Assembly (NCBI GenBank): GCA_043814095.1
Contig: JBDRKI010000099.1
Span: 1 to 64,000 of the forward strand
Length of the DNA stretch: 64,000 nt
Source: Armatimonadota bacterium
GTDB taxonomy: Bacteria; Vulcanimicrobiota; JACPDS01; JBDRKI01
Direction: 5' to 3'
This document shows positions 15,485 through 40,399 of the stretch, piece by piece. Made by a program: the position numbers and the translations under genes. Every line of letters starts with the position of its first letter. Position 1 is the first letter of the stretch. Under the pieces are notes generated by a model. That model was not told the origin of the DNA, ran no database searches, and saw only the letters and a list, made by a program, of their open reading frames with translations.

Positions 15485-16879
15485 TTAATTAAGAACGACG
15501 GTATCCCTGTATTCCGGAATATTAACTTCCCATTTATATTTTTTCTCTATTTTTTCTTTTAAAGATTCTATCGCCTTTTCTTCGCCGTGCACAAGAAAAA
15601 CCTTTGAAGGGTCGGATTCAAGATTAAAGAGCCAGTATAATATCTCTTCATAATCCGCATGGGCGGAGAAGCCGTTTATGACTTTTATCTTTGCTTCCAC
15701 CGGGAAAATCCGGCCGAATATCTTTATATTCTTCTCCCCCTCTAAAATTCTTCTCCCGCGGGTTCCCTCGGCCTGATACCCGCTGAAAAGTATCGTGTTT
15801 TTAGGGTCGCTTATGCGGTGAACAAGGTGATGCAGTATCCTGCCTCCCGTGCACATCCCGTCAGCGGATATAATAATATTCCCCGCGCCTAATTTATTCA
15901 GTTTTTTGGACTCTTCGTGCTTTCTCACGTAATGAAGGTTGTGGCAGAGTATGGGGGACTGCCCTTTATCTTCAAGCTTCTGCGTTTCTATATCATGGTA
16001 GTTTTTATACTTTAAAAATATTTTGGTCGCATTAATCGCCATGGGAGAATCAATATACACATTTGTCTTTTTGCTGATCCTTCCGGTATCCTGAAGCCTT
16101 TTAATATAATAAAGGATGGCCTGGGTCCTGCCCACAGAGAACGCGGGTATTAACAGAACGCCTCCGGCCGAGAAGGTATCATTAATGACTTTTTCCAGTT
16201 CAAACTCGTTGCTTTCCGAAGAATGAAGCCGGTTCCCGTAAGTTGATTCCAGAACAAGATAATCCGCTTTATATACCGGTGAGGGATTTTTTAATATAGG
16301 CACCTGGTAATGGCCGAGGTCTCCCGAGAAAATAATCCTTCTTACTTTCCCGTCATATCTTAATATAATCTCAAGTATCGCCGAACCGAGGAGATGCCCG
16401 GCATCCAGAAACTTAACCTGTATATTATCGGAAATTTTGTATACCTGATTATAATTTCTCGGCACAAAATACTTAAGGGATTCTTCAGCGTCTCTTACGG
16501 TATACAGGGGCATGGCAACTTCATATTTTGAAAACCCCTTTTTGTTGGCGTAAGCGGCGTATTCTTCCTGCAGGTGCGCCGAATCAAGAAGAAGGATCTG
16601 ACACAGGTCCACAGTGGGCTTTGTCGCCCATATCTGACCCTTAAATCCTTCTTTTGTGAATTTAGGTATATATCCCGTATGATCTATATGCGCGTGCGTA
16701 AGGATGCAGTAATCTATATCTGCGGGGTTAACGGGGAGTTTTTCCCAGTTCCTGCGCCTTAATTCCCTTAATCCCTGATACAAACCGCAGTCTATCAAAA
16801 TATTAACACGCCCGTCGGTTAAATAAAACTTGGATCCTGTAACTGTTTTGGTAGCGCCTAAAAATTGTAATCTAAACAT
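15485..16879 (-). CDS. MBL-fold beta-CASP metallo-hydrolase (RNA-processing family)
   Basis: THAHIDH, AGHLLGS, FSGDLG, ESTYG, GRTQ and FSAHAD motifs. Confidence 0.93.
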   Translation of the reverse strand: MFRLQFLGATKTVTGSKFYLTDGRVNILIDCGLYQGLRELRRRNWEKLPVNPADIDYCILTHAHIDHTGYIPKFTKEGFKGQIWATKPTVDLCQILLLDSAHLQEEYAAYANKKGFSKYEVAMPLYTVRDAEESLKYFVPRNYNQVYKISDNIQVKFLDAGHLLGSAILEIILRYDGKVRRIIFSGDLGHYQVPILKNPSPVYKADYLVLESTYGNRLHSSESNEFELEKVINDTFSAGGVLLIPAFSVGRTQAILYYIKRLQDTGRISKKTNVYIDSPMAINATKIFLKYKNYHDIETQKLEDKGQSPILCHNLHYVRKHEESKKLNKLGAGNIIISADGMCTGGRILHHLVHRISDPKNTILFSGYQAEGTRGRRILEGEKNIKIFGRIFPVEAKIKVINGFSAHADYEEILYWLFNLESDPSKVFLVHGEEKAIESLKEKIEKKYKWEVNIPEYRDTVVLN

Positions 16880-18047
16880 TTATCTCCTGAATAACTTTCT
16901 GGGCTATTTTTTTTGCCCCGCCCGGCGGGCCCATTCTCTCACGCCCTATTTTGGCCATATATTCGTATTTCGCGGGATTTTCTAAAATAGAAATTACTTC
17001 ACCTGCAATCTTAACCGGATCTTTATCAACAACGCTTAAAGCGTCCCCTAAAAGCCCTTTTTGGCGAAGCCTGTACCACCCGAGATTGCCGTCCGGCGTC
17101 TTTTCGGAAAACGCGACAACGGGTTTTCCCAGCCCTACCGCCTGTTCGTTCGCCGTGCCGGCCTGGCCCATAATAATATGGGCCCTGGTTATTATATCCC
17201 CGAAAATACCCCGTGTAAGATACACTGTGGAATTTCCCTTTTTCAGCTCCCCGACAATGCCTTTTGTGTAATTTGTCGGAGTAAGCTCCCATCCCAGACT
17301 TATAGATGGCGCCACCATATCTCCCATATCAACCGAAGAAGCAAGCGCCGTGAAGTATTTTACATCCCAGTTAACTTTTTTGCCCAATACTTCAACCGCC
17401 TGAAGAATCATTGAAAAATCTTTATACACATCTTCGCGGCTCCCAGGAAGTATGCCCACGACAACCTGCGGGTACTGTGTTCCCATGTTGCAGTCAACAG
17501 GATTTATGCAGTCCATCATGACATTCCCCGCAAAAACCGCGTTAATGCCGTAATCCCGCAGATCCGAAGCTGTAACCTCATCCCTGGGAAAAACAGTATC
17601 GCAGTATTTTTTAAAAAGTTTTTTTTCTTTATCCGAATAAGGACAGAAATAATTTGATTTTGCCGTCCCCACAAAAATTTGTTTTCTTTTTGTAAAAAAA
17701 GAATTTAAAATAACCGGGTAAGAATCACCCACTGACAATGAAAGATCTGTTTTTGAACGTATTTTTAATATTGAATTTATCTGCCCGAATGTCAAGCCTA
17801 TAAGCCCGGCTTTTACATCGTTAAAAAGCATCTTTGCGTGATTGGAAGGCACTAGCCCCCCGCTCGGCATAAGTTTGGTAGGACCGAGTTTTTTTACATC
17901 AACATTATTATAGGCATGCCCCTTGCCCACAAGGGGTAAGGCATATACGGTAATCCCCTGATCCGCTTTTTTAATCTCTGAAATTACTTGGGCGGCTATC
18001 TCGTCTTCGCCGTAGCCGTTGCTTAATACCAAAATATTCTTATCCAT
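16872..18047 (-). CDS. Lipid-A-disaccharide synthase-related GT-B glycosyltransferase (TIGR03492-like)
   Basis: LSNGYGED, LPLVGKG, PSGG, GNVMMD, LPGSR, AGTANEQAVGLGKP and RMGPPGGA motifs. Confidence 0.85.
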   Translation of the reverse strand: MDKNILVLSNGYGEDEIAAQVISEIKKADQGITVYALPLVGKGHAYNNVDVKKLGPTKLMPSGGLVPSNHAKMLFNDVKAGLIGLTFGQINSILKIRSKTDLSLSVGDSYPVILNSFFTKRKQIFVGTAKSNYFCPYSDKEKKLFKKYCDTVFPRDEVTASDLRDYGINAVFAGNVMMDCINPVDCNMGTQYPQVVVGILPGSREDVYKDFSMILQAVEVLGKKVNWDVKYFTALASSVDMGDMVAPSISLGWELTPTNYTKGIVGELKKGNSTVYLTRGIFGDIITRAHIIMGQAGTANEQAVGLGKPVVAFSEKTPDGNLGWYRLRQKGLLGDALSVVDKDPVKIAGEVISILENPAKYEYMAKIGRERMGPPGGAKKIAQKVIQEINV

Positions 18048-18056
18048 AAAACACCC

Positions 18057-18821
18057 TTATAATTTTATAAGTTCGGTGGTTTCTATATCAAATTTTTTAC
18101 TTCCCGGTTCTTTGCCCTTTTCTTTTTTATATACATTTAAATTTATCTTTGTTATATACCTTCCGTGGCTGCCGGAATAAAAAATAAAGCTGTTCCCTGC
18201 CGCTACCGGCTCTTTTAGCGCTTTATGGTCATGCCCTCCTAAAAAGATAAGGCTCTCTTGAAGGCTTTCCGCGATCTTTATGCATCTTTCGTATTCAAGA
18301 TGCATAAGCACGATTATAATGTCTGCTTTATCTTTTATCTCCTCGATTACATCTTTAAGAGATATTATATAATCCGTAAATTCAAATCCCGATAAGTTTT
18401 TCAAAAAAGAGCCCGGACCATACTGCCGGGGGGTTATCCCCGTTACGGCTATGTTTACCCCGTTTAAGTTCTTAATAATATACCGTTTTATAAGATTTTC
18501 ATTTTTCAGGTCTTTCAGGTTGGCGGAAACAAAAGGCATTTCTGTCTGTTTTACCCTGTTTTTAAAAATACTTCTCAGGTAATGAAACTCCCTGTTTCCC
18601 ACAGCCACCGCATCATAGCCCGCGTCACGCATTTTATCCAGTATATCTTCTCTTTTTTTAAAAACAGTTGAGCTTCCCCATATCGCGTCTCCGGAATCCA
18701 GAAGCAGGCTGTTCTGCCTGTTTATGGGGAGCTGTTCCAGATAAGGAAAAACCGCCCTCTCATTATGCAGATCGGTTGTGTGATAAATTAAAATCTTTTC
18801 ACCTGCCATATCCCGTTCCAT
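18057..18821 (-). CDS. Calcineurin-like metallophosphoesterase (5'-nucleotidase/UshA N-terminal domain only); candidate UDP-diacylglucosamine hydrolase
   Basis: HTTDLH, DSGD, GNREF, FVSAN, LMH and GGHDH motifs; no signal peptide and no C-terminal domain; alternative start at 18809. Confidence 0.8.
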   Translation of the reverse strand: MERDMAGEKILIYHTTDLHNERAVFPYLEQLPINRQNSLLLDSGDAIWGSSTVFKKREDILDKMRDAGYDAVAVGNREFHYLRSIFKNRVKQTEMPFVSANLKDLKNENLIKRYIIKNLNGVNIAVTGITPRQYGPGSFLKNLSGFEFTDYIISLKDVIEEIKDKADIIIVLMHLEYERCIKIAESLQESLIFLGGHDHKALKEPVAAGNSFIFYSGSHGRYITKINLNVYKKEKGKEPGSKKFDIETTELIKL

Positions 18822-20704
18822 ATCATCCCGACTATTGAGGCATCGCGGTTAATCATTAAAGCCATTATGATCATCATAGCGGCGATAATGGCCAGCGTGT
18901 GTATCTCAGCCTTAAAAATAACCTGCCAGTTAAAACGTCCCTGCAGTTCAAAATAAGGGCGCAGCGCGTTAGGTATAATTCTCGGGACCATTTTAGCGTA
19001 TATAAGGTAGGGTTCCCCGAAGGTTTCGTATAAATATACTTCTTCCAGAGGAATTATGATGCCGTAAACTACCATATATCCCATAAGAAAGAGCATAAGC
19101 ACGATAACTCTTTCTACGGACAGCATACCGCCTATGGCCATAAAATAAAAGCCAAGGGCTGTTACGCAGTTGCCCAGATACAGGGGATTTTTAATATAGG
19201 CGTAGGGGCCCGCCGTAACAAGCTGCGGGGCCATAAGCTCGCTTTCCCTCGTGGTTGAGCCCGCGTACCCGACACCCCAGATACGCAGAAATTCGCCCCC
19301 GAAAACAAAGATAAGTCCGAACAAAAACGAATACAGCGTGGGACGCGCGATAAAAAGCACAAAAACAGCCAGAGGCGCGAGAATCCAACCGCGCCATCCG
19401 AAAACAAACTCCCTGAAAGGCGTGCGTATTTTATGCGCATTGGCAAATAAATTTACGCTTGAATCAAGCGAACTTAATATAAGTTCGGCTATCTTCGTTG
19501 AAGCATCATGCTTGCCTTTAGTCACCTCAATTAATTCGTGGCTCATTTTTTCCCTTACATCATCATTCTTTAAAAGCTCCGCGGCCACATTCGTAACTTC
19601 TTCAGCTTTCTGTTCCACAATAACTTCAGGCACAATTTCTTTATCGGCAATCTGGTTTGGAAGCGCCGTAAATTTAATTCTCTTTAGTATCCAGTAAAGA
19701 AGCTTCTTCCTGAAAAAGGAGCCCATCGGAAGCGAACCCAGAAAGCCGGTAAGCCCGCCGCGCGGTATTTTCGCGCGCCATGTTGATGAAACAATCATGG
19801 GTTTTCCGAGCGCGGCCACTTCAGCGGTATTGGTGCCAGGTATGGTAAGCACAAGGTCGGATAAATTAATCACATCATACTGCATGCCCTGGAGCACCCT
19901 TACCTTAAGGCCTTTCTCCGTTTTTATAAACAACGAGCCGTTATTGGTTATAAGCTCGGCTTTTGTGCCCTCCAGCCCGCTGCCGGAAGGAGTAAGGCAT
20001 TTTTCAAGATCTTTTAAAGATAAAAACGGTGATACGCCGAGTAAAAACTGTATGTTGCTGAAACGGTCTTTCAGCTCTTCCGCCACTTTTAAATAGTAAG
20101 GAAGGCTTTCTTTCACATGATAGAACCTGCTGCCCGGAAGTATGCCGACAGTATGAGAAGTCTCTTCTATGCCCCACTGTTTGCTCACAGCCAGCTTATC
20201 AAGGGTGGGCTTTGCCTGTTCAACCATTAGATTCCCGACAACCACAATCCTGTCTTTTTTAAACCCCAAATCTGCCATCTCCTGGGCTATTGCCTCATCC
20301 TGCACGCCGAGGTAATCAAAATATTTATTCCATTTTGACGCTTTTACCGAATATGCGACCGAAGGATACCTGAGCCTTCTGGAGACTATAAGAGCGTGCC
20401 AGAAATCCCCGCCCAGAAAAACCACGCTCCCGAAAGCGGCGGGAGAATATTTTTTAAGCCTGAAACCGAAAAGAAACTGTACAAACTCTTTAGGATTTAT
20501 AACAACATCAACACCGTCAATGGCTTTGGCAATTTCTTCTTCTTTACCGCTCGCGTAAGGACACGGTACAAGCATAACAATTATGCGTATCTCCGGACGA
20601 CTTAATTTTAACTTTGCAATTGTTATTCTCACCCATGAAGAAAGCTCTCCCGGACTGTTTGTTATTATAACTATATCTTTTTTCTTATCATCAACTTTAA
20701 GCAT
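18788..20704 (-). CDS. LpxB-like GT-B glycosyltransferase fused to a C-terminal ICMT/PEMT-family membrane methyltransferase (LmtA-like)
   Basis: N-part has ITNSPGELSSW, LVPCPYASG, FLGGD, LPGSR, PGTNTAE and ALPN...IVPE; C-part has LRIWGVGY, LVTAGPYAYIKNPLYLGN and EEVYL...FG. Probable ATG at 20704 (track start 20749). Confidence 0.82.
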   Translation of the reverse strand: MLKVDDKKKDIVIITNSPGELSSWVRITIAKLKLSRPEIRIIVMLVPCPYASGKEEEIAKAIDGVDVVINPKEFVQFLFGFRLKKYSPAAFGSVVFLGGDFWHALIVSRRLRYPSVAYSVKASKWNKYFDYLGVQDEAIAQEMADLGFKKDRIVVVGNLMVEQAKPTLDKLAVSKQWGIEETSHTVGILPGSRFYHVKESLPYYLKVAEELKDRFSNIQFLLGVSPFLSLKDLEKCLTPSGSGLEGTKAELITNNGSLFIKTEKGLKVRVLQGMQYDVINLSDLVLTIPGTNTAEVAALGKPMIVSSTWRAKIPRGGLTGFLGSLPMGSFFRKKLLYWILKRIKFTALPNQIADKEIVPEVIVEQKAEEVTNVAAELLKNDDVREKMSHELIEVTKGKHDASTKIAELILSSLDSSVNLFANAHKIRTPFREFVFGWRGWILAPLAVFVLFIARPTLYSFLFGLIFVFGGEFLRIWGVGYAGSTTRESELMAPQLVTAGPYAYIKNPLYLGNCVTALGFYFMAIGGMLSVERVIVLMLFLMGYMVVYGIIIPLEEVYLYETFGEPYLIYAKMVPRIIPNALRPYFELQGRFNWQVIFKAEIHTLAIIAAMMIIMALMINRDASIVGMIWNGIWQVKRF

Positions 20705-20705
20705 A

Positions 20706-21860
20706 TTACTCCTCAACTTTATTAATAATATCGCGGATGAGCCCGGCAACTTTATTAATTACGCCGCCGGATTCAAAATTTTCTTTAATTCTTCGTAAAT
20801 CGCAGAGCATATCCCTTCTGGCGGGACTTTCTTTAATAAGCTCGCGCGCAAGCACGCTTATCCTGCGCGGACTTATGTCTTTTTGAATAAATTCAGGAAC
20901 GACTTCTTTTCCCAGAATAATATTAGGCAGAGAAATATGCTTAAGGTACGGGAATAATATCTTTGCCGCCGTATAATCAAACCAGTTTAACCTGTATAAG
21001 ACTATCATGGGGGTTAAAAAATACGCGGCCTCAAGAGTCGCTGTCCCGCTTGAAGTTATAATAAGATCGGATGCCTGCATTACATCATAAGCGGACCGGG
21101 TAACCCGTACAGGAAAGCCTGTCTTTGCCCTTGTTAAGTAATCCCTTATAATCTTCTCTATATGGGGCGATGAAGCCGGTATCATAAAGAAGGTCTCCGG
21201 GTCTTTCTCGTGAATCAGCATGGAAGTCTCTATCATACTGCCCAGAAGGAGCCTGACTTCATGAGCCCTGCTGCCGGGAAGAAGCCCTATAACCTTATCT
21301 TCTTTTATCCTGTACTCTTTTTTTATGCTGTGTTTATCCCTGCGCGCATCCTCTATTGCGTCAACTATTGGGTGGCCGAAATAATAAACTTTTTTTCCTG
21401 CTTTTTCATACATATTTTTAGTATGTTCAAAAACAGGTACGACATAATCAAAGAACCGGGCGTAACGGCGGGTTTTATCAAGATTTTCTTTCCTCCATGC
21501 GGAAGGCGGAAAATAATACATCATCTTGATGTTGTGTTTTTTAACATACTCCGCTATGCGCACATTTATTGCGGGCGAATCTATTAAAATCAAAAGATCG
21601 GGCTTGAATTTCACTATATCTTTTTTAAGCTTATCCACCTTAAACCACAGGTAGGGAACTTTCTTAACGGCTTCCCATATGCCTATAACTCCCCATGAAG
21701 AAGTATCCGTAAAATGTTCAAGCTCCTCGGATTTTAAACTGTGTCCGCCGGCTCCAAGAAACACAATATTATTATCCATCTGCTTCAGTTTCTTTACCAG
21801 TAATGAAGAATGCAGATCTCCAGAGGATTCAAACGAAGTTATGGCTATTTTTTTGTTCAT
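20706..21860 (-). CDS. lpxB: Lipid-A-disaccharide synthase
   Basis: ESSGDLH, LIDSP, PPSAW, GHP, LLPGSRAHE, SGTATLE, ISLPNII and VPEFIQ motifs; directly downstream of lpxA. Confidence 0.92.
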   Translation of the reverse strand: MNKKIAITSFESSGDLHSSLLVKKLKQMDNNIVFLGAGGHSLKSEELEHFTDTSSWGVIGIWEAVKKVPYLWFKVDKLKKDIVKFKPDLLILIDSPAINVRIAEYVKKHNIKMMYYFPPSAWRKENLDKTRRYARFFDYVVPVFEHTKNMYEKAGKKVYYFGHPIVDAIEDARRDKHSIKKEYRIKEDKVIGLLPGSRAHEVRLLLGSMIETSMLIHEKDPETFFMIPASSPHIEKIIRDYLTRAKTGFPVRVTRSAYDVMQASDLIITSSGTATLEAAYFLTPMIVLYRLNWFDYTAAKILFPYLKHISLPNIILGKEVVPEFIQKDISPRRISVLARELIKESPARRDMLCDLRRIKENFESGGVINKVAGLIRDIINKVEE

Positions 21861-21927: not shown

Positions 21928-22710
21928 TTATTTTCCGACTATTCCCAGCCTTGACGGATTATTTAAAAAATCTACCAAATGGCGGACTTCTTTGTCTGAA
22001 TTAAGATTGCTGTTAATTTCATCAACAGCCTGACCTATATTGAGTTTGGAATCCATAATATATTTGTACGCTTTTTTAAGCTCTTTTCTTCCTTTTTCGT
22101 CAATGCCTTTACGCGCCAATCCCCTGTAGTTTATACCGTAAAGTTTGATAGGCTGGCCGTCAGCGATTGAAAAAGGAGGCACGTCTTTTACTACCTTGGA
22201 AAAACCGCCTACCATTGCCATCTTGCCTATTTTGGCAAACTGGTGGATACCCGTCATACCGCCTATAACGGCATGATCTTCCACTTCAACATGACCGGAA
22301 AGCCCTGTTGAATTGGCGATTACTATGCCGCTGCCGAGCACGCAGTTGTGTGCCACGTGCACAAAAGCCATAAGCATATTATCGTTTCCGATAACTGTCT
22401 TTCCGCCTTCGTCCGCGGCCCTGTGAACGGTTATGAATTCGCGCAGTATATTATTGTCGCCTATCTCAACATAGCTTTCAAAATCCTTGTATTTTAAATC
22501 CTGGGGGGGAGCGCCTATAACGGATGAGACCCCTATCTTGTTGTTACTGCCTATTTTAGTCCATCCCTCTATAACACAGTGAGAAGCTATTTTGGTATTA
22601 TCGCCTATTATGACATTTTTCCCGATTATGGAATAAGGGCCTACCTCTACTCCCTTGCCTAATTTGGCCCCTTGATCAATGATAGCCGTAGGGTGTATCA
22701 CTTGCTTCAC
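21928..22710 (-). CDS. lpxA: Acyl-ACP--UDP-N-acetylglucosamine (or UDP-GlcNAc3N) acyltransferase
   Basis: Hexapeptide repeats, PQDLKY, HVAHNC (catalytic His), GHV, HQF and DVPPF motifs. Confidence 0.97.
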   Translation of the reverse strand: MKQVIHPTAIIDQGAKLGKGVEVGPYSIIGKNVIIGDNTKIASHCVIEGWTKIGSNNKIGVSSVIGAPPQDLKYKDFESYVEIGDNNILREFITVHRAADEGGKTVIGNDNMLMAFVHVAHNCVLGSGIVIANSTGLSGHVEVEDHAVIGGMTGIHQFAKIGKMAMVGGFSKVVKDVPPFSIADGQPIKLYGINYRGLARKGIDEKGRKELKKAYKYIMDSKLNIGQAVDEINSNLNSDKEVRHLVDFLNNPSRLGIVGK

Positions 22711-22711
22711 C

Positions 22712-23695
22712 TCAATTTTTTGTCATGGCCAGATATTCTTCAGCAAGCTCTCTGTTGCGTTTTACCGTTTTCATGGAGCTTACAATCTGCATGGCCAGCT
22801 CCAGCGCGCGTTTGCCGTCTTCCCCCGAAACCATGGGGGTTTTATGCTGTGACACGCATTCTATGAAATGAGCCAGCTCCAGGCGCAGAGGTTCGTCTTT
22901 CTCAACATATATATGCTCAAATGTATTGGGTTTGCCGTTCATGGGCGGTTTCATTAAAGTTACCGCCTGGTTTATAAAATCAAGAAGCAGGGTCCTGCCG
23001 TTCTCAATAACCTTCATCTGCCTTAGCTTCTCACCGCTTACCCTGGAGGATAAAAGCTGGGCGACACAGCCGTTTTTAAATGTGATCTTCACTATCGCCA
23101 GATCCTCAAAATCAGAGTATACGGATATCCCTGTTGCCTGAATCTCCTTAATATCCGATTTAACAATATTAAGAAGTATATCAAGATCATGAACCATTAA
23201 ATCCCAGACAATGCCCACGTCTAAATTCCTGTTTGTGGGGAAAGACATTCTCTGGGCTTCAATAAATAAAGGTTCGTTTATAAGTTTTTTAAACATCAGC
23301 ATCGCGGGATTAAACCTCTCCAGGTGGCCTACCTGCAGAATCATGTCTTTGCCGTTTGCCATATCTATTAATTCTTTGGCCTGACTCAAATCGGTTGTTA
23401 TAGGTTTTTCAATCATTACATGTATATTTCTGCTTAAAAAATCTTTGGCAATCTGATGGTGAAGATTTGTCGGAACTGCAATATTGACGGCGTCTACTTT
23501 TGCAAAAAGATCCTTATAATCAACGTAATAATCGGTCTGCAGCTTTCTCGCGACTCCTTCGCCGAGATCTTTCTGAATATCAACAAGGCCGGTCAGCTCA
23601 ACATTTTCCATTTCCGAATATATTCTGGCGTGGTGCCTGCCCATGTTGCCTACACCTATAACACCAACTCTGATTTTATTACTCAAAGCGTTCAC
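22712..23695 (-). CDS. Gfo/Idh/MocA oxidoreductase, GnnA-like (UDP-GlcNAc 3-dehydrogenase)
   Basis: GVGNMG, EKP, VGHLERFNPA and DLMVHDLD motifs; 1 bp from lpxA. Confidence 0.8.
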   Translation of the reverse strand: MNALSNKIRVGVIGVGNMGRHHARIYSEMENVELTGLVDIQKDLGEGVARKLQTDYYVDYKDLFAKVDAVNIAVPTNLHHQIAKDFLSRNIHVMIEKPITTDLSQAKELIDMANGKDMILQVGHLERFNPAMLMFKKLINEPLFIEAQRMSFPTNRNLDVGIVWDLMVHDLDILLNIVKSDIKEIQATGISVYSDFEDLAIVKITFKNGCVAQLLSSRVSGEKLRQMKVIENGRTLLLDFINQAVTLMKPPMNGKPNTFEHIYVEKDEPLRLELAHFIECVSQHKTPMVSGEDGKRALELAMQIVSSMKTVKRNRELAEEYLAMTKN

Positions 23696-23787: not shown

Positions 23788-25053
23788 TTATTTTTCCACC
23801 ACGAGGGCAAACATAAGTTCGCCTTCAGCCACCACCTTGTCTTCCACTTTAGCGATGACTTTAACCTTGCCCATCTGGTTGCTTCTTAAGCTGATAACAT
23901 CGGCCTCAATTAAAAGCTGGTCTCCCGGAACAACGGCTTTTCTGAATTTTACCTTGTCTATCCCGGCAAAGAAAGGGGTTATTTTTTTGTCTCTGCGCCC
24001 GTTTAAAAGCATAATGCCGCCCACCTGGGCCATTGCCTCAATAATTAAAACACCCGGCATAATCGGATTCCCGGGGAAATGACCGTTAAAGAACGGCTCG
24101 TTTATCGTTACGTTTTTTATCCCGACAGACCTTTTATCGTTCTCAAGCTCAAGAATCCTGTCCACCAGCAAAAACGGATAACGGTGCGGTAAAATACCGA
24201 ATATCTCTTTAATATTAATGTCAGCCACTGTACCCTCCTTAACCACAGGCAGTCTTTTGATAAAATCAATATCCAGACTATGGCTGGATTTATAAGCGTA
24301 AATATGCGCCTTAAGCGGTTTTCCCAAAACGGCCAGATCTCCGATAAGGTCCAGTCCTTTATGGCGGACAATCTCGTCATCAAAACGGAGTTTGGTCATT
24401 ATACTATCCTGTTTTATAACCACTGCGTTATCAAGAGAGCCGCCAAGAGCCAGATTTCTTTCCTTTAAGCTCTCTACTTCCTCCCAGAAACCAAAAGTTC
24501 TCGCGGGAGCAACTTCGGAAAGAAAATCATTTTTTTCCTTAATAAAATCAAAACTCTGGGCACCTACCATGGGATGGTTAAAATTTACCAGAGTTGTAAT
24601 TTTCAGTTCATCCGCGGGATGAGCGGTTATGAAAGAGTCGCCCTTTTTAAACGAGAACGGCTCTTTTATTATAAGATAGGATTTATCGGCGTTCTGTTCA
24701 AGCAGATGAGATTTTATCTCGGCGGCAAAAGGAAGAGCACTCCCGTCTAAAGCCGGTATTTCTTCGCCGCTTACCTCTATAAGCAGGTTATCAACCCCGT
24801 AAGCGTAAAGCGCCGCCAGAAGATGTTCCACCGTCCTGACATTACAGTTTTTTGTTCCTACGGATACGGAACGAACTGTAGACAATACACCAGCCGGACA
24901 CAATTCAATCTCGGGCGTTCCTGGAAGATCTACACGTTTAAATTTAATGCCGTAATTTTCTTCCCTGGGAATCAATCTGACTTTTACCTCTGTACCCGAG
25001 TGAAGGCCTATGCCGGAAAATTCCAGTTCTTGTTTTAATGTTTTCTGCTTCAT
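23788..25053 (-). CDS. lpxC/fabZ: Bifunctional LpxC-FabZ fusion
   Basis: LpxC motifs [24 protein letters not shown] and [10 protein letters not shown]; FabZ motifs [11 protein letters not shown] and [20 protein letters not shown]. Confidence 0.97.
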
Positions 25054-25090: not shown

Positions 25091-26089
25091 TTATTTTGCC
25101 TTATTTTCAAGTTCTTCTATTCTTTTATTAAAACTTTCAATGGTTTTAGAGAGGGATGTCATATATGACTGCATTTTTAATTCTTCCCTGTGGCTCTTTG
25201 CGGGGAAACCGCTTACCATGCTTTTGGGTTTTATCTCTTTTGTAACACCGGCGCGTCCGAGCACCATTGTGTCATGCCCTATCTTCACGTGATCGGATAC
25301 CCCCACCTGGGCCGCCAGTATAACCCGGTCTCCGACTTTGGAAGATCCTGCTACACCGGTCATGGCAACGATTATACAATCTTCACCTATCTCAACATTA
25401 TGTGCTATATGAACAAGGTTGTCTATCTTAGTGCCCCTGCCTATCCTGGTAGCGCCTGTTGTGGCTCTGTCCACGCAGGTATTTGAACCGATCTCCGCCT
25501 CATCTCCTATATGCACGGTGCCGAGCTGGGGTATCTTAAAATTCTTAGCGCCTTCCTTAACATAGCCGAAGCCTTCGGAACCTATTACCGCGCCGCTGTA
25601 TATGATCACACTGCGCCCCATAAAAACCCTGTCAAATATGACAGCATTGGGATAGATTACCGTTCCTGCGCCTATTTCAGCGCCTTCACCTATATAAACA
25701 CCGGCATGAATCTGAACATTATCACCGATAACGGCGCCCTTATTAATCACCGCGTTCGGACCCACGGCAACATCTTTGCCGAGCCGCGCTTCAGGGTCTA
25801 TAACCGCCTTCTCGTGTATGCCGTTAAGAGGCGTTTTTACTTCAAACAAACCCAAAACTTTCGCAAACGCAAGCTTTGGATCGCCGGCAACAAGAAGGGT
25901 CTTGCCCCTAATGTCAGTATATTTAATTTTATTGCTCGCGATAATAACGCCTGCCGTGGAGTTTAAGGCCTTCTCAAAATTTCTCGTATCCGCCGCCCAG
26001 ATGATGGAACTCGGACCGGAAATTTCCACATCATCGCCTTTTAATTCGGCTTTTATTTCCCGCGCTATTTCGCTTGCTTTAAAAGACAT
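25091..26089 (-). CDS. lpxD: UDP-3-O-(3-hydroxyacyl)glucosamine N-acyltransferase
   Basis: Hexapeptide repeats, IGSEGFGY, KIPQLG, TKIDNLVHIAHNV and SGFPA motifs; probable ATG at 26089 (track start 26125). Confidence 0.96.
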   Translation of the reverse strand: MSFKASEIAREIKAELKGDDVEISGPSSIIWAADTRNFEKALNSTAGVIIASNKIKYTDIRGKTLLVAGDPKLAFAKVLGLFEVKTPLNGIHEKAVIDPEARLGKDVAVGPNAVINKGAVIGDNVQIHAGVYIGEGAEIGAGTVIYPNAVIFDRVFMGRSVIIYSGAVIGSEGFGYVKEGAKNFKIPQLGTVHIGDEAEIGSNTCVDRATTGATRIGRGTKIDNLVHIAHNVEIGEDCIIVAMTGVAGSSKVGDRVILAAQVGVSDHVKIGHDTMVLGRAGVTKEIKPKSMVSGFPAKSHREELKMQSYMTSLSKTIESFNKRIEELENKAK

Positions 26090-26099
26090 TTCAATACCT

Positions 26100-26507
26100 T
26101 TACTGCAGTTTATTTTTAATTTCATCGGTTATATCTATTCCGCCGTATTCCACGGCAAAATCCACCACTACAATATTCAGTTTCTTTTTCTTCGCGATTT
26201 GCGCAACCACTTCTTCAAGCTTTTCATCAAGAGCGTTGCCTTTTTCCTTCCATTTTTCGTTCATCTGCTCAATAACCGCCTTTTGTTTGTCCGTTATCTT
26301 AGACGGGTCTTTGGGCAGTTTGCCGAGCAGAAGATCGCTCTCAACCTGGTACTCGCTCATCAAGTCCCTGTATTCCGCCCAGTTGGCAAGAAGCTTATAC
26401 CTGTTAATAATGCCTGTTTTTAAATTTGCCGGCTTACACCCGGTGACAGAAATAATAATCCCCATACATATAAACAACACTGCCGCGACTATAACTATTT
26501 TTTTCAT
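26100..26507 (-). CDS. Small OmpH/Skp-like protein with lipobox
   Basis: Lipoprotein signal ...SVTGC; Skp-type C-terminus (IAKKKKLNIVV...YGGIDITDEI). Confidence 0.7.
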   Translation of the reverse strand: MKKIVIVAAVLFICMGIIISVTGCKPANLKTGIINRYKLLANWAEYRDLMSEYQVESDLLLGKLPKDPSKITDKQKAVIEQMNEKWKEKGNALDEKLEEVVAQIAKKKKLNIVVVDFAVEYGGIDITDEIKNKLQ

Positions 26508-38150: not shown

Positions 38151-39131
38151 TTAATTATATGCGGCACCGTTTACGAATATGGCGTTCCCTGTTCCTATTG
38201 CCACGCATGATATCGGATCTTCCGCTATCTTAACGGGCATGCCCGTCGCTTTTGTTATTAAAATATCCAGTCCGCAGAGAAGCCCGCCGCCGCCCGTTAA
38301 AACAATGCCTTTGTCTATTATGTCGGCTGAGAGCTCGGGAGGTGTTTTTTCAAGCACGCTTTTTACCGCTTCAACCATAAGGGTAAGGGGCTCTTCCAAT
38401 GCTTCCCTTACTTCTTCTGAATTAATTGTTATTGTTTTGGGAAGCCCGTTTATAAGGTCGCGTCCCCTTATTTCCATGGTTCTGGGTGTTTCTTCCGGAT
38501 ATGCCGAACCTATTTTTATTTTAATGTCCTCGCTTGTTCTTTCGCCTATCATGAGGTTATACGTTTTCCTTATATACCTTACTATCGCTTCATCCATTTT
38601 ATTGCCGGCAACCCTTATTGATTCTCCGACAACTATGCCGCCTAAAGATATAACGGCTATGTCCGTTGTTCCGCCGCCTATATCAACGACCATATTCCCG
38701 CAGGGTTCTTCAACTTTAAGACCCGCGCCTATGGCCGCGGCCATGGGTTCTTCTATAAGGAATGCTTTCCTCGCGCCCGCGCTTAAAGCGGCTTCAAGAA
38801 CGGCTCTTTTTTCAACCGAAGTTACTTCCATGGGAACACATACGATAACTGAAGGCTTGAAGAATCTTCTTTTGCCGCAGACTTTGTTTATGAAATATTT
38901 TAACATGGCTTCGGTTACTTCATAATCGGCGATAACGCCTTCGCGGAGAGGCCTTATGGCAACGATATTCGCGGGTGTTCTGCCAAGCATCTGGCGCGCC
39001 TGCTCGCCTACCGCAAGAATTTTATTCGTGTTTTTATCTATCGCGACAACGGAAGGTTCTTTTAAAACTATACCTTTGTTATGCGCGTGCACAAGAACTG
39101 TAGCTGTTCCAAGATCAATCCCTATATTCAT
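38151..39131 (-). CDS. mreB: Rod shape-determining protein MreB/Mbl
   Basis: [33 protein letters not shown] and LTGGG motifs; position after atp-murA matches Firmicutes mbl. Confidence 0.96.
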
Positions 39132-39145
39132 GGTGTCCCCCTTTA

Positions 39146-40399
39146 TTACTCCGCTCTCTTTATATTTCCGCCCAAGCTTGTTATTTTATCTTCAAATTTT
39201 TCATAACCGCGCTCTATGTATTCCACGCCGAAAACTTCACTCCGGCCCTCAGCCGCAAGAGCGGCCGCGACAAGCGCGCCGCCCGCGCGCAGGTCCCCTG
39301 CTTCCACCGGCGCACCCGTTAAGGTTTTTACGCCCCTTACGACGGCTCCCCTGTTCCTTATTATTATATCGGCTCCCATTCTCCGCAGTTCGTCAACATA
39401 TCCGAACCTGCCGTTAAAGATGGTCTCCTCAACAAAGCTTACGCCTTTCGCGGTTGTAAGCATCGCAACAAGCGGAGGCTGAAGATCGGTAGGAAACCCA
39501 GGATAGGGTTCCGTGGCTATCTCTACCGCGTTATAATTCTTTAAAGCCTTTAATTGTATAGTATCACTTGTAGTTTTTGTGTCAATACCCGTTCTTTCCA
39601 GAACTTCAAGTACGGCCTTTAGATGATTCGGGTTGACTTTATTTATTAAAATATCGCCTTTTGTTTTTGCGGCGGCGAAAAGGTAAGTCCCTGCTTCTAT
39701 CCTGTCGGGTATAATTTCATATTCGGCGCCGTGAAGCCTGCTCACGCCGTCTATTATAAGTTCTTTGGTGCCTATACCTTTTATTCTGGCGCCGCACTTA
39801 TTTAAAAAATGCGCGAGGTCGTTAACTTCCGGCTCGCATGCGGCATTATCAATTAATGTTTCGCCTTTTGCCATGCACGCGGCCATCATAACATTTTTAG
39901 TCGCGCCCACGCTTGACCTGGCAAAGTAAATTTTATTTCCCGTAAGGCCCCTGGCCCTGGCATCAAGTATGCCGTGTTCAAGAGAAACTTTGGCACCGAG
40001 CTTTTCAAAGCCGTGGATATGAAGATCAACCGCCCTGCTTCCTATAACGCATCCGCCGGGGAGAGGAACTTCCGCCCTGTTAAACCTTGCAAGAAGAGGG
40101 CCTGTAATATCAAATGAGGCATGAATTTTTTTTACAAGCTCGTAAGGCGCGGGGGTTTCTGTCATGGCTGAAGAGTCAATGAAAACTTCGCCGCTTCCTT
40201 CAAAAGTTATATCGGCTCCGAGCTTTTTTAAAAGCTGGACCATAACCCTTACATCCGATATGTCGGGAACGTTGCTCAGGTAAACTTTTCCCGACACAAG
40301 AATGGAAGCCGCCATAATGGGAAGCGCGGCGTTTTTCGCGCCACTTGCGGTTATTTCTCCCCTTAAAGGAGTCCCGCCATCAATTACATACTTTGCCAC
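39146..40399 (-). CDS. murA: UDP-N-acetylglucosamine 1-carboxyvinyltransferase
   Basis: [18 protein letters not shown] (active-site Cys), [10 protein letters not shown] and DLRAG motifs. Confidence 0.98.

Follow-up and report, generated by a model that had tools for sequence, protein, structure and literature searches.

The phosphoesterase gene and its lipid A cluster

The metallophosphoesterase (MPE) considered here is encoded on the reverse strand of a 64,000-nucleotide stretch of DNA, called the window, within a run of genes for lipid A synthesis (Table 1). In the direction of transcription, lpxD, an lpxC-fabZ fusion, an oxidoreductase gene, lpxA and lpxB are followed by a gene for a fusion protein with an LpxB-like domain, by the focal MPE gene and by a gene for a GT-B protein of the TIGR03492 type. 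The fusion ORF overlaps the start of the focal MPE by 34 nt if the first ATG is used, and by 22 nt if translation begins at the alternative start Met5 (position 18809), which is the start used in the database gene call of 250 aa. An earlier note on this DNA had placed the gene between two LpxB paralogs, overlapping the upstream one, and this is the arrangement that we find, with the LpxB-like fusion upstream and the TIGR03492 protein downstream. The latter keeps the UDP-binding motifs PGSR and GTAxE; a PDB sequence search with it returned weak matches to UDP-GlcNAc 2-epimerases alone (E 0.02–0.2) and none to LpxB. The GnnA-like oxidoreductase gene hints at a GlcN3N backbone.

Table 1. Features of the lipid A cluster in the window, with the model matches on which the assignments rest
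Feature	Position	Strand	Details
TIGR03492 "lipid-A-disaccharide synthase-related", GT-B protein	16872–18047	−	298.8 bits (cut-off 219.2); 9 nt downstream of the focal MPE
Focal MPE, candidate UDP-2,3-diacylglucosamine pyrophosphatase	18057–18821	−	254 aa, single-domain UshA-N-type, GNRE family
GNRE codons (G75-N76-R77-E78)	18588–18599	−	Arg instead of the catalytic His of GNH(E/D)
Fusion of LpxB-like domain (about residues 25–430) and C-terminal membrane PEMT/ICMT/LmtA-like methyltransferase	18788–20749	−	653 aa; Pfam, NCBIfam
lpxB, lipid A disaccharide synthase	20706–21860	−	TIGR00215 210.8 bits (cut-off 190.25); PF02684 251.9 bits
lpxA	21928–22710	−	TIGR01852 318.6 bits (cut-off 231)
GFO/IDH/MocA oxidoreductase, GnnA-like	22712–23695	−	Best match UDP-N-acetylglucosamine 3-dehydrogenase NF040723, 271.7 bits, below the cut-off of 450
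lpxC-fabZ fusion	23788–25053	−	TIGR00325 272.6 bits, TIGR01750 189.1 bits, both above cut-offs
lpxD	25091–26125	−	TIGR01853 324 bits (cut-off 242.5)

The translation of the focal MPE contains the motifs HTTDLH (residues 14–19), DSGD (42–45), FVSAN (97–101) and GGHDH (195–199) in addition to GNRE, all as read in the earlier note. The Pfam search gave PF00149 (Metallophos) alone, with 25.7 bits against a cut-off of 21.5; 5_nucleotid_C (PF02872) was not matched and the protein stops at residue 254, which agrees with the note's description of a single-domain MPE of the 5'-nucleotidase/UshA type that lacks the C-terminal nucleotide-binding domain. Among the NCBIfam models, the N-terminal halves of the UshA-like, SoxB, UshA and NadN models were matched, all far below their cut-offs (UshA NF007109, 66.7 bits versus 600; UshA-like NF041198, 98.6 versus 275). 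All 35 sequence matches in the PDB are of the 5'-nucleotidase type; GNREFH of the focal MPE aligns with GNHEFD of these enzymes, and three of the alignments show GNrEF in the query against GNHEF. No match was obtained at E ≤ 0.01 to the NCBIfam models of LpxH (TIGR01854), LpxG (NF033458) and LpxI, nor to LpxI_C (PF06230) in Pfam. Due to the position of the DxH motif, which begins at residue 17, there is no room for a signal peptide, and a hydrophobic segment was not found (maximum 19-residue Kyte-Doolittle mean 0.99), so that the cytoplasmic location assigned earlier holds. When all six frames of the 2.5-Mb genome were scanned with regular expressions, five pattern matches were obtained, and the focal ORF was the sole one with D.H..GD..GNR[DE]. 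A PF00149 profile scan of the same genome listed five other phosphoesterase ORFs and missed the focal one, and is thus not exhaustive.

The GNRE family and its predicted fold

In a tree of 174 related domains, all 82 rows with GNRE fall into one clade with an SH-like support of 99, while the two-domain relatives of the family have the GNH(E/D) motif. Thirteen residues, namely D17, H19, D42, G44, D45, G75, N76, R77, E78, N101, H174, H197 and H199, do not vary among the 76 family members aligned. The arginine is hence conserved as strictly as the metal ligands, and it is also found in 26 of 26 sequences of a smaller alignment. The Asp that follows Glu-Phe in GNHEFD is mostly His in the family. 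Since the motif is invariant in all 76 members and the focal ORF is the only one of its kind in the genome, GNRE is not a chance match. Judged by sequence, the GNRE proteins are a distinct family.

The AlphaFold2 model of the focal MPE has a pLDDT of 95.7. Its best structural matches are N-domains of 5'-nucleotidases, with VIA-align Z-scores of 25–27 and rmsd values of 2.4–3.2 over 231–238 residues; Foldseek gave TMq values of 0.73–0.80 and E-values of 1e-16 to 1e-19 against 5'-nucleotidase-type structures. The LpxH structure 5b49_A follows at rank 41 with a Z-score of 10.4 and 155 aligned residues. Because the fold is that of a 5'-nucleotidase N-domain (Z 26–27) and distant from LpxH, the arginine appears to be convergent with that of LpxH, as the earlier note had inferred. 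A different outcome was obtained for the lipid-binding cap that the note had suggested looking for in a predicted structure. Neither such a cap nor a hydrophobic insertion was seen. By structural alignment and secondary structure, the whole length of the model corresponds to a bare 5'-nucleotidase N-domain to which no domain has been added, although a small lipid-binding surface may be present. In LpxH the acyl chains are bound by a helical cap according to the cited text of PMC6286764, and the bare catalytic domain seen here counts against a lipid X-forming function.

Genomic linkage and lipid A genes in related genomes

Related loci (n = 80) were collected with a 10-row alignment of the family. 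A TIGR03492 gene lies directly downstream of the MPE gene in 71 of the 80, and in 64 the gene immediately before the MPE gene encodes LpxB or the LpxB-like/LmtA fusion (the fusion in 17). One or more lpx genes occur in 73 loci. The earlier note had made its proposal depend on GNRE homologues being linked to lpx genes, and these counts are in its favour. The commonest order is lpxD-lpxC/fabZ-lpxA-lpxB-MPE-TIGR03492. The stop of the MPE gene and the start of the TIGR03492 gene overlap in 49 of 64 pairs, and a protein of 650 aa (P0038) is a natural MPE-TIGR03492 fusion. One of the loci (L029) comes from a record labelled Melainabacteria; its phylum sample is the window's own phylum.

Eight loci are listed as having no lpx neighbours (seven by the count of lpx matches). 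In five of these eight the order is kdsD-kdsC-MPE-membrane protein, and a family search confirmed two. None of the eight genomes has LpxH, LpxI or TIGR03492 above cut-off (0/8 each); an LpxB-type gene is all that they keep in its place. All five genomes with the kdsD-kdsC context encode LpxK and WaaA (5/5 each); as far as their sequences tell, the other pathway genes looked for are present and only a known hydrolase is lacking. The kdsD-kdsC loci thus appear as a second, independent LPS context for the MPE.

In the source genome, which is 99% complete, LpxH (TIGR01854) and LpxI (PF06230) were not found, and the sole LpxG-like protein reaches 131.8 bits against a cut-off of 350; a canonical enzyme of this kind would have spoken against the earlier proposal. 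The survey was extended to 121 genomes of the window's phylum, 91 of them of high quality. The GNRE family profile matches 121 of 121 (best hits mostly at or below 1e-56, in short frames), but this is not a clean count of the family, as paralogues of the two-domain UshA-like type are also matched by the profile, at about 1e-50. The best match in one genome (G025), whose cluster ends at a contig edge, is probably such a paralogue. A repeat count with a better profile gave 149 of 150 genomes of the same phylum, one being the unpublished G250. LpxB-type genes occur in 120 and TIGR03492 in all of the 121 genomes, while LpxH, LpxI_C (PF06230) and LpxG above cut-off each occur in 0 of 121. For genomes that carry the family, which is the direction covered here, this fits the mutual exclusion for which the earlier note had proposed to look. 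LpxK was likewise found in 0 of 121, and WaaA above cut-off in just one. The pathway of the phylum is therefore non-canonical, and the true substrate of the MPE could differ from that of the canonical route. TIGR03492 was also present in Synechococcus and Deinococcus, which were included as controls.

Proposed function and comparison with known enzymes

Lipid A synthesis cannot do without the formation of lipid X, which is the acceptor needed by LpxB. Three classes of lipid X-forming enzymes are described, LpxH, LpxI and LpxG, and the cited text of a 2025 review lists just these (PMC12444477). Since 2010, whole lineages have been on record that encode lpxA, lpxC, lpxD and lpxB without any of the known hydrolases, under the term "four-enzyme pathway", according to the part of PMC3087551 cited here. 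We propose that the focal MPE is probably a UDP-2,3-diacylglucosamine pyrophosphatase of a fourth kind that evolved by convergence. For the GNRE family as a whole we lean, a little less firmly, towards a fourth independent class of UDP-2,3-diacylglucosamine hydrolases, which would have been recruited from a periplasmic-type UshA domain, would have converged on the arginine of LpxH and would serve both the LpxK-less and almost WaaA-less route of the phylum and a route with LpxK, WaaA and Kdo. In the literature we found no description of a fourth hydrolase class of this kind, and nothing relevant on TIGR03492 or on lipid A in Eremiobacterota.

On this reading, the ORF encodes a soluble cytoplasmic two-metal MPE that is derived from the catalytic N-domain of UshA/5'-nucleotidase enzymes, with loss of the signal peptide and of the C-terminal nucleotide-binding domain. 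Most likely, it would cleave the pyrophosphate of UDP-2,3-diacylglucosamine to UMP and lipid X; due to the GnnA-like gene in the cluster, the GlcN3N analogue may be the substrate here. Two metal ions would be held by D17, H19, D45, N76, H174, H197 and H199 and would activate a water molecule, which would attack the phosphate on the UMP side. R77, at the position of the general-acid His, might bind and neutralise the sugar-1-phosphate leaving group, as a counterpart of Arg80 in LpxH. In the phylum route the MPE would be translationally coupled to, and in one case fused with, the uncharacterised TIGR03492 protein, which may replace the missing late steps. The second route, with LpxK, WaaA and Kdo-synthesis genes, would be served in genomes that carry the label Armatimonadota in their records.

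The tight pairing with TIGR03492, seen in the downstream position, the overlaps and the fusion protein, could also mean that the MPE acts together with this protein on a different UDP- or phosphate-bearing intermediate of lipid A. The MPE might remove UMP from a UDP-linked disaccharide made from two UDP-diacylglucosamines, or it might be a catalytic subunit to which TIGR03492 contributes the UDP-lipid pocket of the lost C-terminal domain. The retained PGSR and GTAxE motifs are consistent with this, and so is the scarcity of LpxK and WaaA in the phylum, by which the later steps must differ. We consider such a joint function unlikely, as the eight GNRE genomes without TIGR03492 above cut-off, five of them with the MPE gene beside kdsD-kdsC, argue that the MPE does not depend on TIGR03492, and as the net chemistry would still be the release of UMP from a UDP-linked lipid A precursor. 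An obligatory role of TIGR03492 as the substrate-binding partner was downgraded on account of the same eight genomes. A complex prediction for the two proteins, run on paired 65-row alignments and with no control runs, returned a score of 0.00 and a mark of 0.32, and bears neither way on whether they bind each other.

The main rival to lipid X formation by the GNRE protein is the weak YaeI/LpxG-like protein encoded elsewhere in the genome (contig C48 of G000). It would be the enzyme that makes lipid X, and the GNRE protein would simply ride in the operon, as an auxiliary phosphoesterase for nucleotides or UDP-sugars. The C48 protein has 304 aa, LpxG is its best NCBIfam match, and it shares N-terminal membrane helices and GNHD with the LpxG described in the cited text of PMC4807358. 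Relatives below the cut-off occur in 60 of the 121 phylum genomes and in all five genomes with the kdsD-kdsC context, and could make lipid X in the genomes that carry them. However, the 350-bit cut-off is reached in none of the 121 and none of the five genomes, and in three families of the phylum, all with lpxB and the GNRE gene, even a weak match is found in only 2 of 45 genomes (the largest family), 0 of 3 and 0 of 6. The LpxG model also matches, below its cut-off, in the controls Bacillus subtilis, Lactococcus lactis and Methanosarcina, which are not known to make lipid A. The C48 gene, moreover, has no lpx neighbours; it adjoins SpoIID-like and alpha/beta-hydrolase ORFs, named from reading their translations. 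We therefore regard lipid X formation by the C48 protein as improbable, slightly more so than a joint function with TIGR03492.

A monoesterase (5'-nucleotidase) activity is also established for enzymes of the UshA type. That the MPE is a cytoplasmic phosphomonoesterase, which takes the 1-phosphate off lipid X or off the disaccharide 1-phosphate and so yields the phosphate-free lipid A of four-enzyme pathway bacteria, would fit this activity and the LpxK and WaaA counts, which resemble the "four-enzyme" type of Cyanobacteria with an LPS lacking Kdo and phosphate in the cited part of PMC3087551, but it is highly improbable, as it leaves lipid X formation unexplained, the LmtA-like methyltransferase domain in the cluster implies that the 1-phosphate is retained, some of the genomes with the family do encode LpxK and WaaA, and the loss of the general-acid His would suit a phosphate better than an alcohol as leaving group.

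Lipid X formation by the GNRE family, if true, would fill, in these lineages at least, the gap that has long been noted in the "four-enzyme" route to lipid A. The source of the LpxB acceptor in that pathway has had no explanation so far, and the family is a concrete and testable candidate. It would also represent a second independent His-to-Arg change in an MPE acting on the same substrate, and thus a clean case of convergent evolution of an active site. The annotation of LPS pathways in a large, mostly uncultured soil phylum would improve, and TIGR03492, with its members in Synechococcus and Deinococcus, would become the next protein to be explained in the assembly of lipid A without Kdo.

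Compared with the UshA/5'-nucleotidase family (E. coli UshA, the T. thermophilus 5'-nucleotidase, CD73, NadN and SoxB), the GNRE protein has the fold of the N-domain and shares the metal-ligand motifs DxH, GD, GN.E, SAN and GGH.H. UshA cleaves the pyrophosphates of UDP-sugars (NCBIfam description). In contrast to these enzymes, the GNRE protein lacks a signal peptide and 5_nucleotid_C, carries an invariant Arg for the catalytic His, forms a clade of its own and is a cytoplasmic protein encoded among lipid A genes. With LpxH of beta- and gammaproteobacteria it has in common the calcineurin-like MPE superfamily, the change from His to Arg in GNH(D/E), the cytoplasmic side and the proposed reaction, but it is not matched by TIGR01854, its structure is distant and the helical cap is not seen in its model. 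If the function is shared, the arginine arose independently of LpxH. The discussion in PMC5016852 reports the replacement of His by Arg "only in LpxH", where the Arg forms a salt bridge with the phosphate of lipid X, in agreement with the earlier note, which had taken it as the hallmark of LpxH.

Chlamydial LpxG is likewise an MPE that replaces LpxH in a lineage without LpxH and LpxI, and was found through the missing step (PMC4807358, in the text cited). It has an N-terminal membrane helix and GNHD according to the same source, whereas the focal MPE has neither, and its model NF033458 matches the C48 protein of the genome weakly and the focal MPE not at all. LpxI of alphaproteobacteria and others has an unrelated fold and attacks the beta-phosphate without a catalytic metal centre, according to the part of PMC6286764 cited here. 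Its discovery started from an uncharacterised gene within the lpxA-lpxD-lpxB operon of bacteria without lpxH (PMC6286764, cited text), and the operon argument for the GNRE protein is the same.

The GNRE phosphoesterase and its family

The frame of the focal phosphoesterase comprises 254 codons, and its translation carries the motifs listed in the table. The calcineurin-like phosphoesterase family PF00149 is its only Pfam match (25.7 bits, cut-off 21.5), with no match to the 5_nucleotid_C domain. In the NCBIfam search the N-terminal halves of the UshA-like, SoxB, UshA and NadN models were matched, all well under their cut-offs, and the LpxH, LpxG and LpxI models were not. All 35 matches of a PDB sequence search are of the 5'-nucleotidase type, and in the printed alignments GNrEFh of the focal protein stands opposite their GNHEFD. 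Translation, Pfam, NCBIfam and PDB agree in every detail with the earlier note, which had described a single UshA-type domain with GNRE in place of GNH(E/D). Hydrophobic segments are absent from the protein (the highest Kyte-Doolittle mean over 19 residues is 0.99), and its DxH motif, which begins at residue 17, leaves no space for a signal peptide. An internal contrast is provided by a 518-aa frame at the contig's end, partly within the window's final 0.8 kb: this two-domain UshA-like 5'-nucleotidase with N-terminal hydrophobic leader and GNHE is the canonical secreted paralogue of the focal protein.

GNRE is invariant in all 26 proteins of similar length from a word-indexed sequence search. 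When 1.84 billion cluster representatives were searched exhaustively with HMMER, 7043 matches reached E ≤ 0.001; among the best 150, which were examined, proteins shorter than 300 aa carry GNRE and long two-domain proteins carry GNH(E/D). In a midpoint-rooted tree, calculated with FastTree only, 82 of 174 domain rows form one clade (SH-like support 99), consisting of 79 short GNRE rows, the sole long GNRE row and two rows mislabelled by the regular expression. The latter are presumably the mislabelled P0041 and P0057, which both carry GNREF, since this fits the count of three label changes. The four short GNH rows fall outside the clade. G44, G75, R77 and E78 are invariant in a 76-member alignment, as are the residues that we take to be metal ligands from their correspondence to UshA.

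The AF2 model of the focal protein (pLDDT 95.7) resembles 5'-nucleotidase N-domains with Z 26-27, and LpxH (5b49_A) follows at rank 41 with Z 10.4. This distance argues that the Arg was not inherited from LpxH, and the modelled fold is thus in line with the convergence proposed in the earlier note. The lipid-binding cap for which the note had suggested looking was not seen on the model.

Genomic context

The focal gene belongs to one minus-strand array running from lpxD through ackA.

Features of the lipid A array, motifs of the focal protein and related loci
Feature	Position	Strand	Remark
lpxD	26125-25091	(-)	
lpxC-fabZ fusion	25053-23788	(-)	
GnnA-like oxidoreductase	23695-22712	(-)	between lpxC-fabZ and lpxA
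lpxA	22710-21928	(-)	
lpxB	21860-20706	(-)	
LpxB-like/LmtA-like fusion	20749-18788	(-)	653 aa; C-terminal PEMT/ICMT/LmtA-like membrane methyltransferase domain
Phosphoesterase (GNRE)	18821-18057	(-)	
HTTDLH	residues 14-19		
DSGD	residues 42-45		
GNRE	residues 75-78; 18588-18599	(-)	
FVSAN	residues 97-101		
GGHDH	residues 195-199		
TIGR03492 protein	18047-16872	(-)	9 nt past phosphoesterase
beta-CASP/metallo-beta-lactamase nuclease	16879-15485	(-)	followed by ackA
Two-domain UshA-like protein	contig C99, ~63.2-64.8 kb	(-)	
YaeI/LpxG-like protein	contig C48, ~38994-39908 (L001:1318-2232)	(-)	304 aa
Polytopic membrane protein	L077:8713-10632; L058:8802-10685; L033:2449-3843		next after kdsD-kdsC-phosphoesterase

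Loci encoding relatives numbered 236 in a pattern scan that took one genome per species, and the best 80 of them were analysed by tblastn with the window's proteins; the counts that follow refer to these 80. TIGR03492, a family named 'lipid-A-disaccharide synthase-related', lies directly downstream of the phosphoesterase in 71 loci, and LpxB or the LpxB-like/LmtA fusion directly upstream in 64. The most frequent order is lpxD-lpxC/fabZ-lpxA-lpxB-phosphoesterase-TIGR03492. One or more lpx genes accompany the phosphoesterase in 73 loci, so that the linkage to lpx genes expected in the earlier note holds. With starts chosen by script, the phosphoesterase stop overlaps the TIGR03492 start in 49 of 64 pairs, mostly as a 4-nt ATGA, and in one representative (P0038, 650 aa) both proteins are naturally fused. 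Judged from this gene arrangement, TIGR03492 is predicted to be translationally coupled to the phosphoesterase.

The window's fusion protein matches LmtA_Leptospira under cut-off (47.4 bits), a hint that the 1-phosphate of lipid A is methylated as in Leptospira. In 17 loci the gene immediately before the phosphoesterase encodes this fusion; most of these loci also have the GnnA-like gene, which only some of the related clusters carry. With this UDP-GlcNAc 3-dehydrogenase candidate (271.7 bits, cut-off 450), the lipid A backbone may be built on 2,3-diamino-glucose. There is an 8-nt overlap between the TIGR03492 stop and the start of the beta-CASP gene. The product of the latter matches best a type VII CRISPR Cas14 model (420.5 bits, cut-off 800) and second aCPSF1, and probably acts as a general nuclease of the RNase J/CPSF kind.

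Eight loci (seven in the tblastn count) have no lpx neighbours, and five of them show the order kdsD-kdsC-phosphoesterase followed by a large membrane protein; in two, a family search confirmed the order, with KpsF/KdsD and KdsC over their cut-offs. In the genomes of the eight, neither LpxH nor LpxI was found (0/8 each), nor was TIGR03492 over cut-off (0/8), with weak LpxB-type cross-matches only. LpxK and WaaA are present in all five kdsD-kdsC genomes. The GNRE enzyme thus has another LPS context, independent of the first, in which it can evidently do without TIGR03492. The polytopic membrane protein has a weak LIC_10190-family match in three loci (30-42 bits, cut-off 100).

Candidates for lipid X formation in the phylum

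LpxH, LpxI, LpxK and the WaaA N-domain had no match in the window's genome, which is 99% complete. Across a phylum sample of 121 genomes (91 of high quality), LpxH, LpxI_C, LpxK and LpxG over cut-off were each found in none, and WaaA over cut-off in one, which has 9% contamination. The GNRE profile matches all 121, not a clean family count because two-domain paralogues also match at ~1e-50. LpxB-type proteins occur in 120, the lpx cluster of the remaining genome ending at a contig end, and TIGR03492 in 121 (77 over cut-off). The canonical LpxH or LpxI whose presence would have spoken against the earlier note was thus not found, and LpxG was likewise missing over cut-off; a sub-cut-off LpxG-like protein is, however, encoded on contig C48 of the window's genome.

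This membrane-anchored YaeI/LpxG-like metallophosphoesterase with GNHD is the main rival of the GNRE protein as candidate for lipid X formation, and may serve in the window's genome or in those with the kdsD-kdsC context. LpxG is its top NCBIfam match (131.8 bits, cut-off 350; YaeI 102.5, cut-off 188), and sub-cut-off relatives occur in 60 of the 121 genomes and in all five kdsD-kdsC genomes. However, the LpxG model gives such matches in Bacillus, Lactococcus and Methanosarcina too, and only 2 of 45 genomes of the largest family have a C48-type relative. The C48-type protein cannot account for lipid X formation across the phylum. Its gene adjoins ORFs resembling SpoIID and an alpha/beta-hydrolase, as named from their translations.

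Record titles of the related loci are mostly Vulcanimicrobiota or Eremiobacteraeota, and several titled Armatimonadetes or Melainabacteria (L013 and L029 among others) belong, by identical contigs, to the sampled phylum. Labels are unreliable for the GNRE-bearing group. Burkholderiales, Synergistia, Binatia and 'proteobacterium' titles also appear doubtful, judged from shared gene order alone.

Comparison with known systems

The best-supported reading, to which we lean, is that the GNRE family would supply the UDP-2,3-diacylglucosamine pyrophosphatase step; its substrate, its products and what R77 does are inferred. Arg80 of LpxH is the counterpart of the invariant Arg: according to an excerpt of PMC5016852, it stands 'only in LpxH' where other enzymes have the general-acid His, and it forms a salt bridge to the phosphate of lipid X. 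The capless model would count against a simple LpxH-like mechanism. The discovery of LpxI, as described in part of PMC6286764, rested on the same genomic argument.

The missing LpxK and WaaA mark the downstream lipid A pathway as unusual and similar to the 'four-enzyme' route that a section of PMC3087551 outlines for Cyanobacteria and Dictyoglomi. The TIGR03492 model is over cut-off in Synechococcus elongatus and in Deinococcus radiodurans as well. The TIGR03492 protein retains PGSR and GTAxE, by which LpxB-type GT-B enzymes bind the nucleotide, and, given the phylum's lack of LpxK and near lack of WaaA, it may perform a late step in the assembly of lipid A or core.

Our literature search found no description of a fourth hydrolase class, of TIGR03492 or of the phylum's lipid A, and the extract of a 2025 review (PMC12444477) names LpxH, LpxI and LpxG only. 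The proposed reaction itself is known, and the superfamily is shared with LpxH and LpxG; new in the GNRE family are its different branch, with a cytoplasmic UshA-type domain that is capless in the model, and the convergent Arg.
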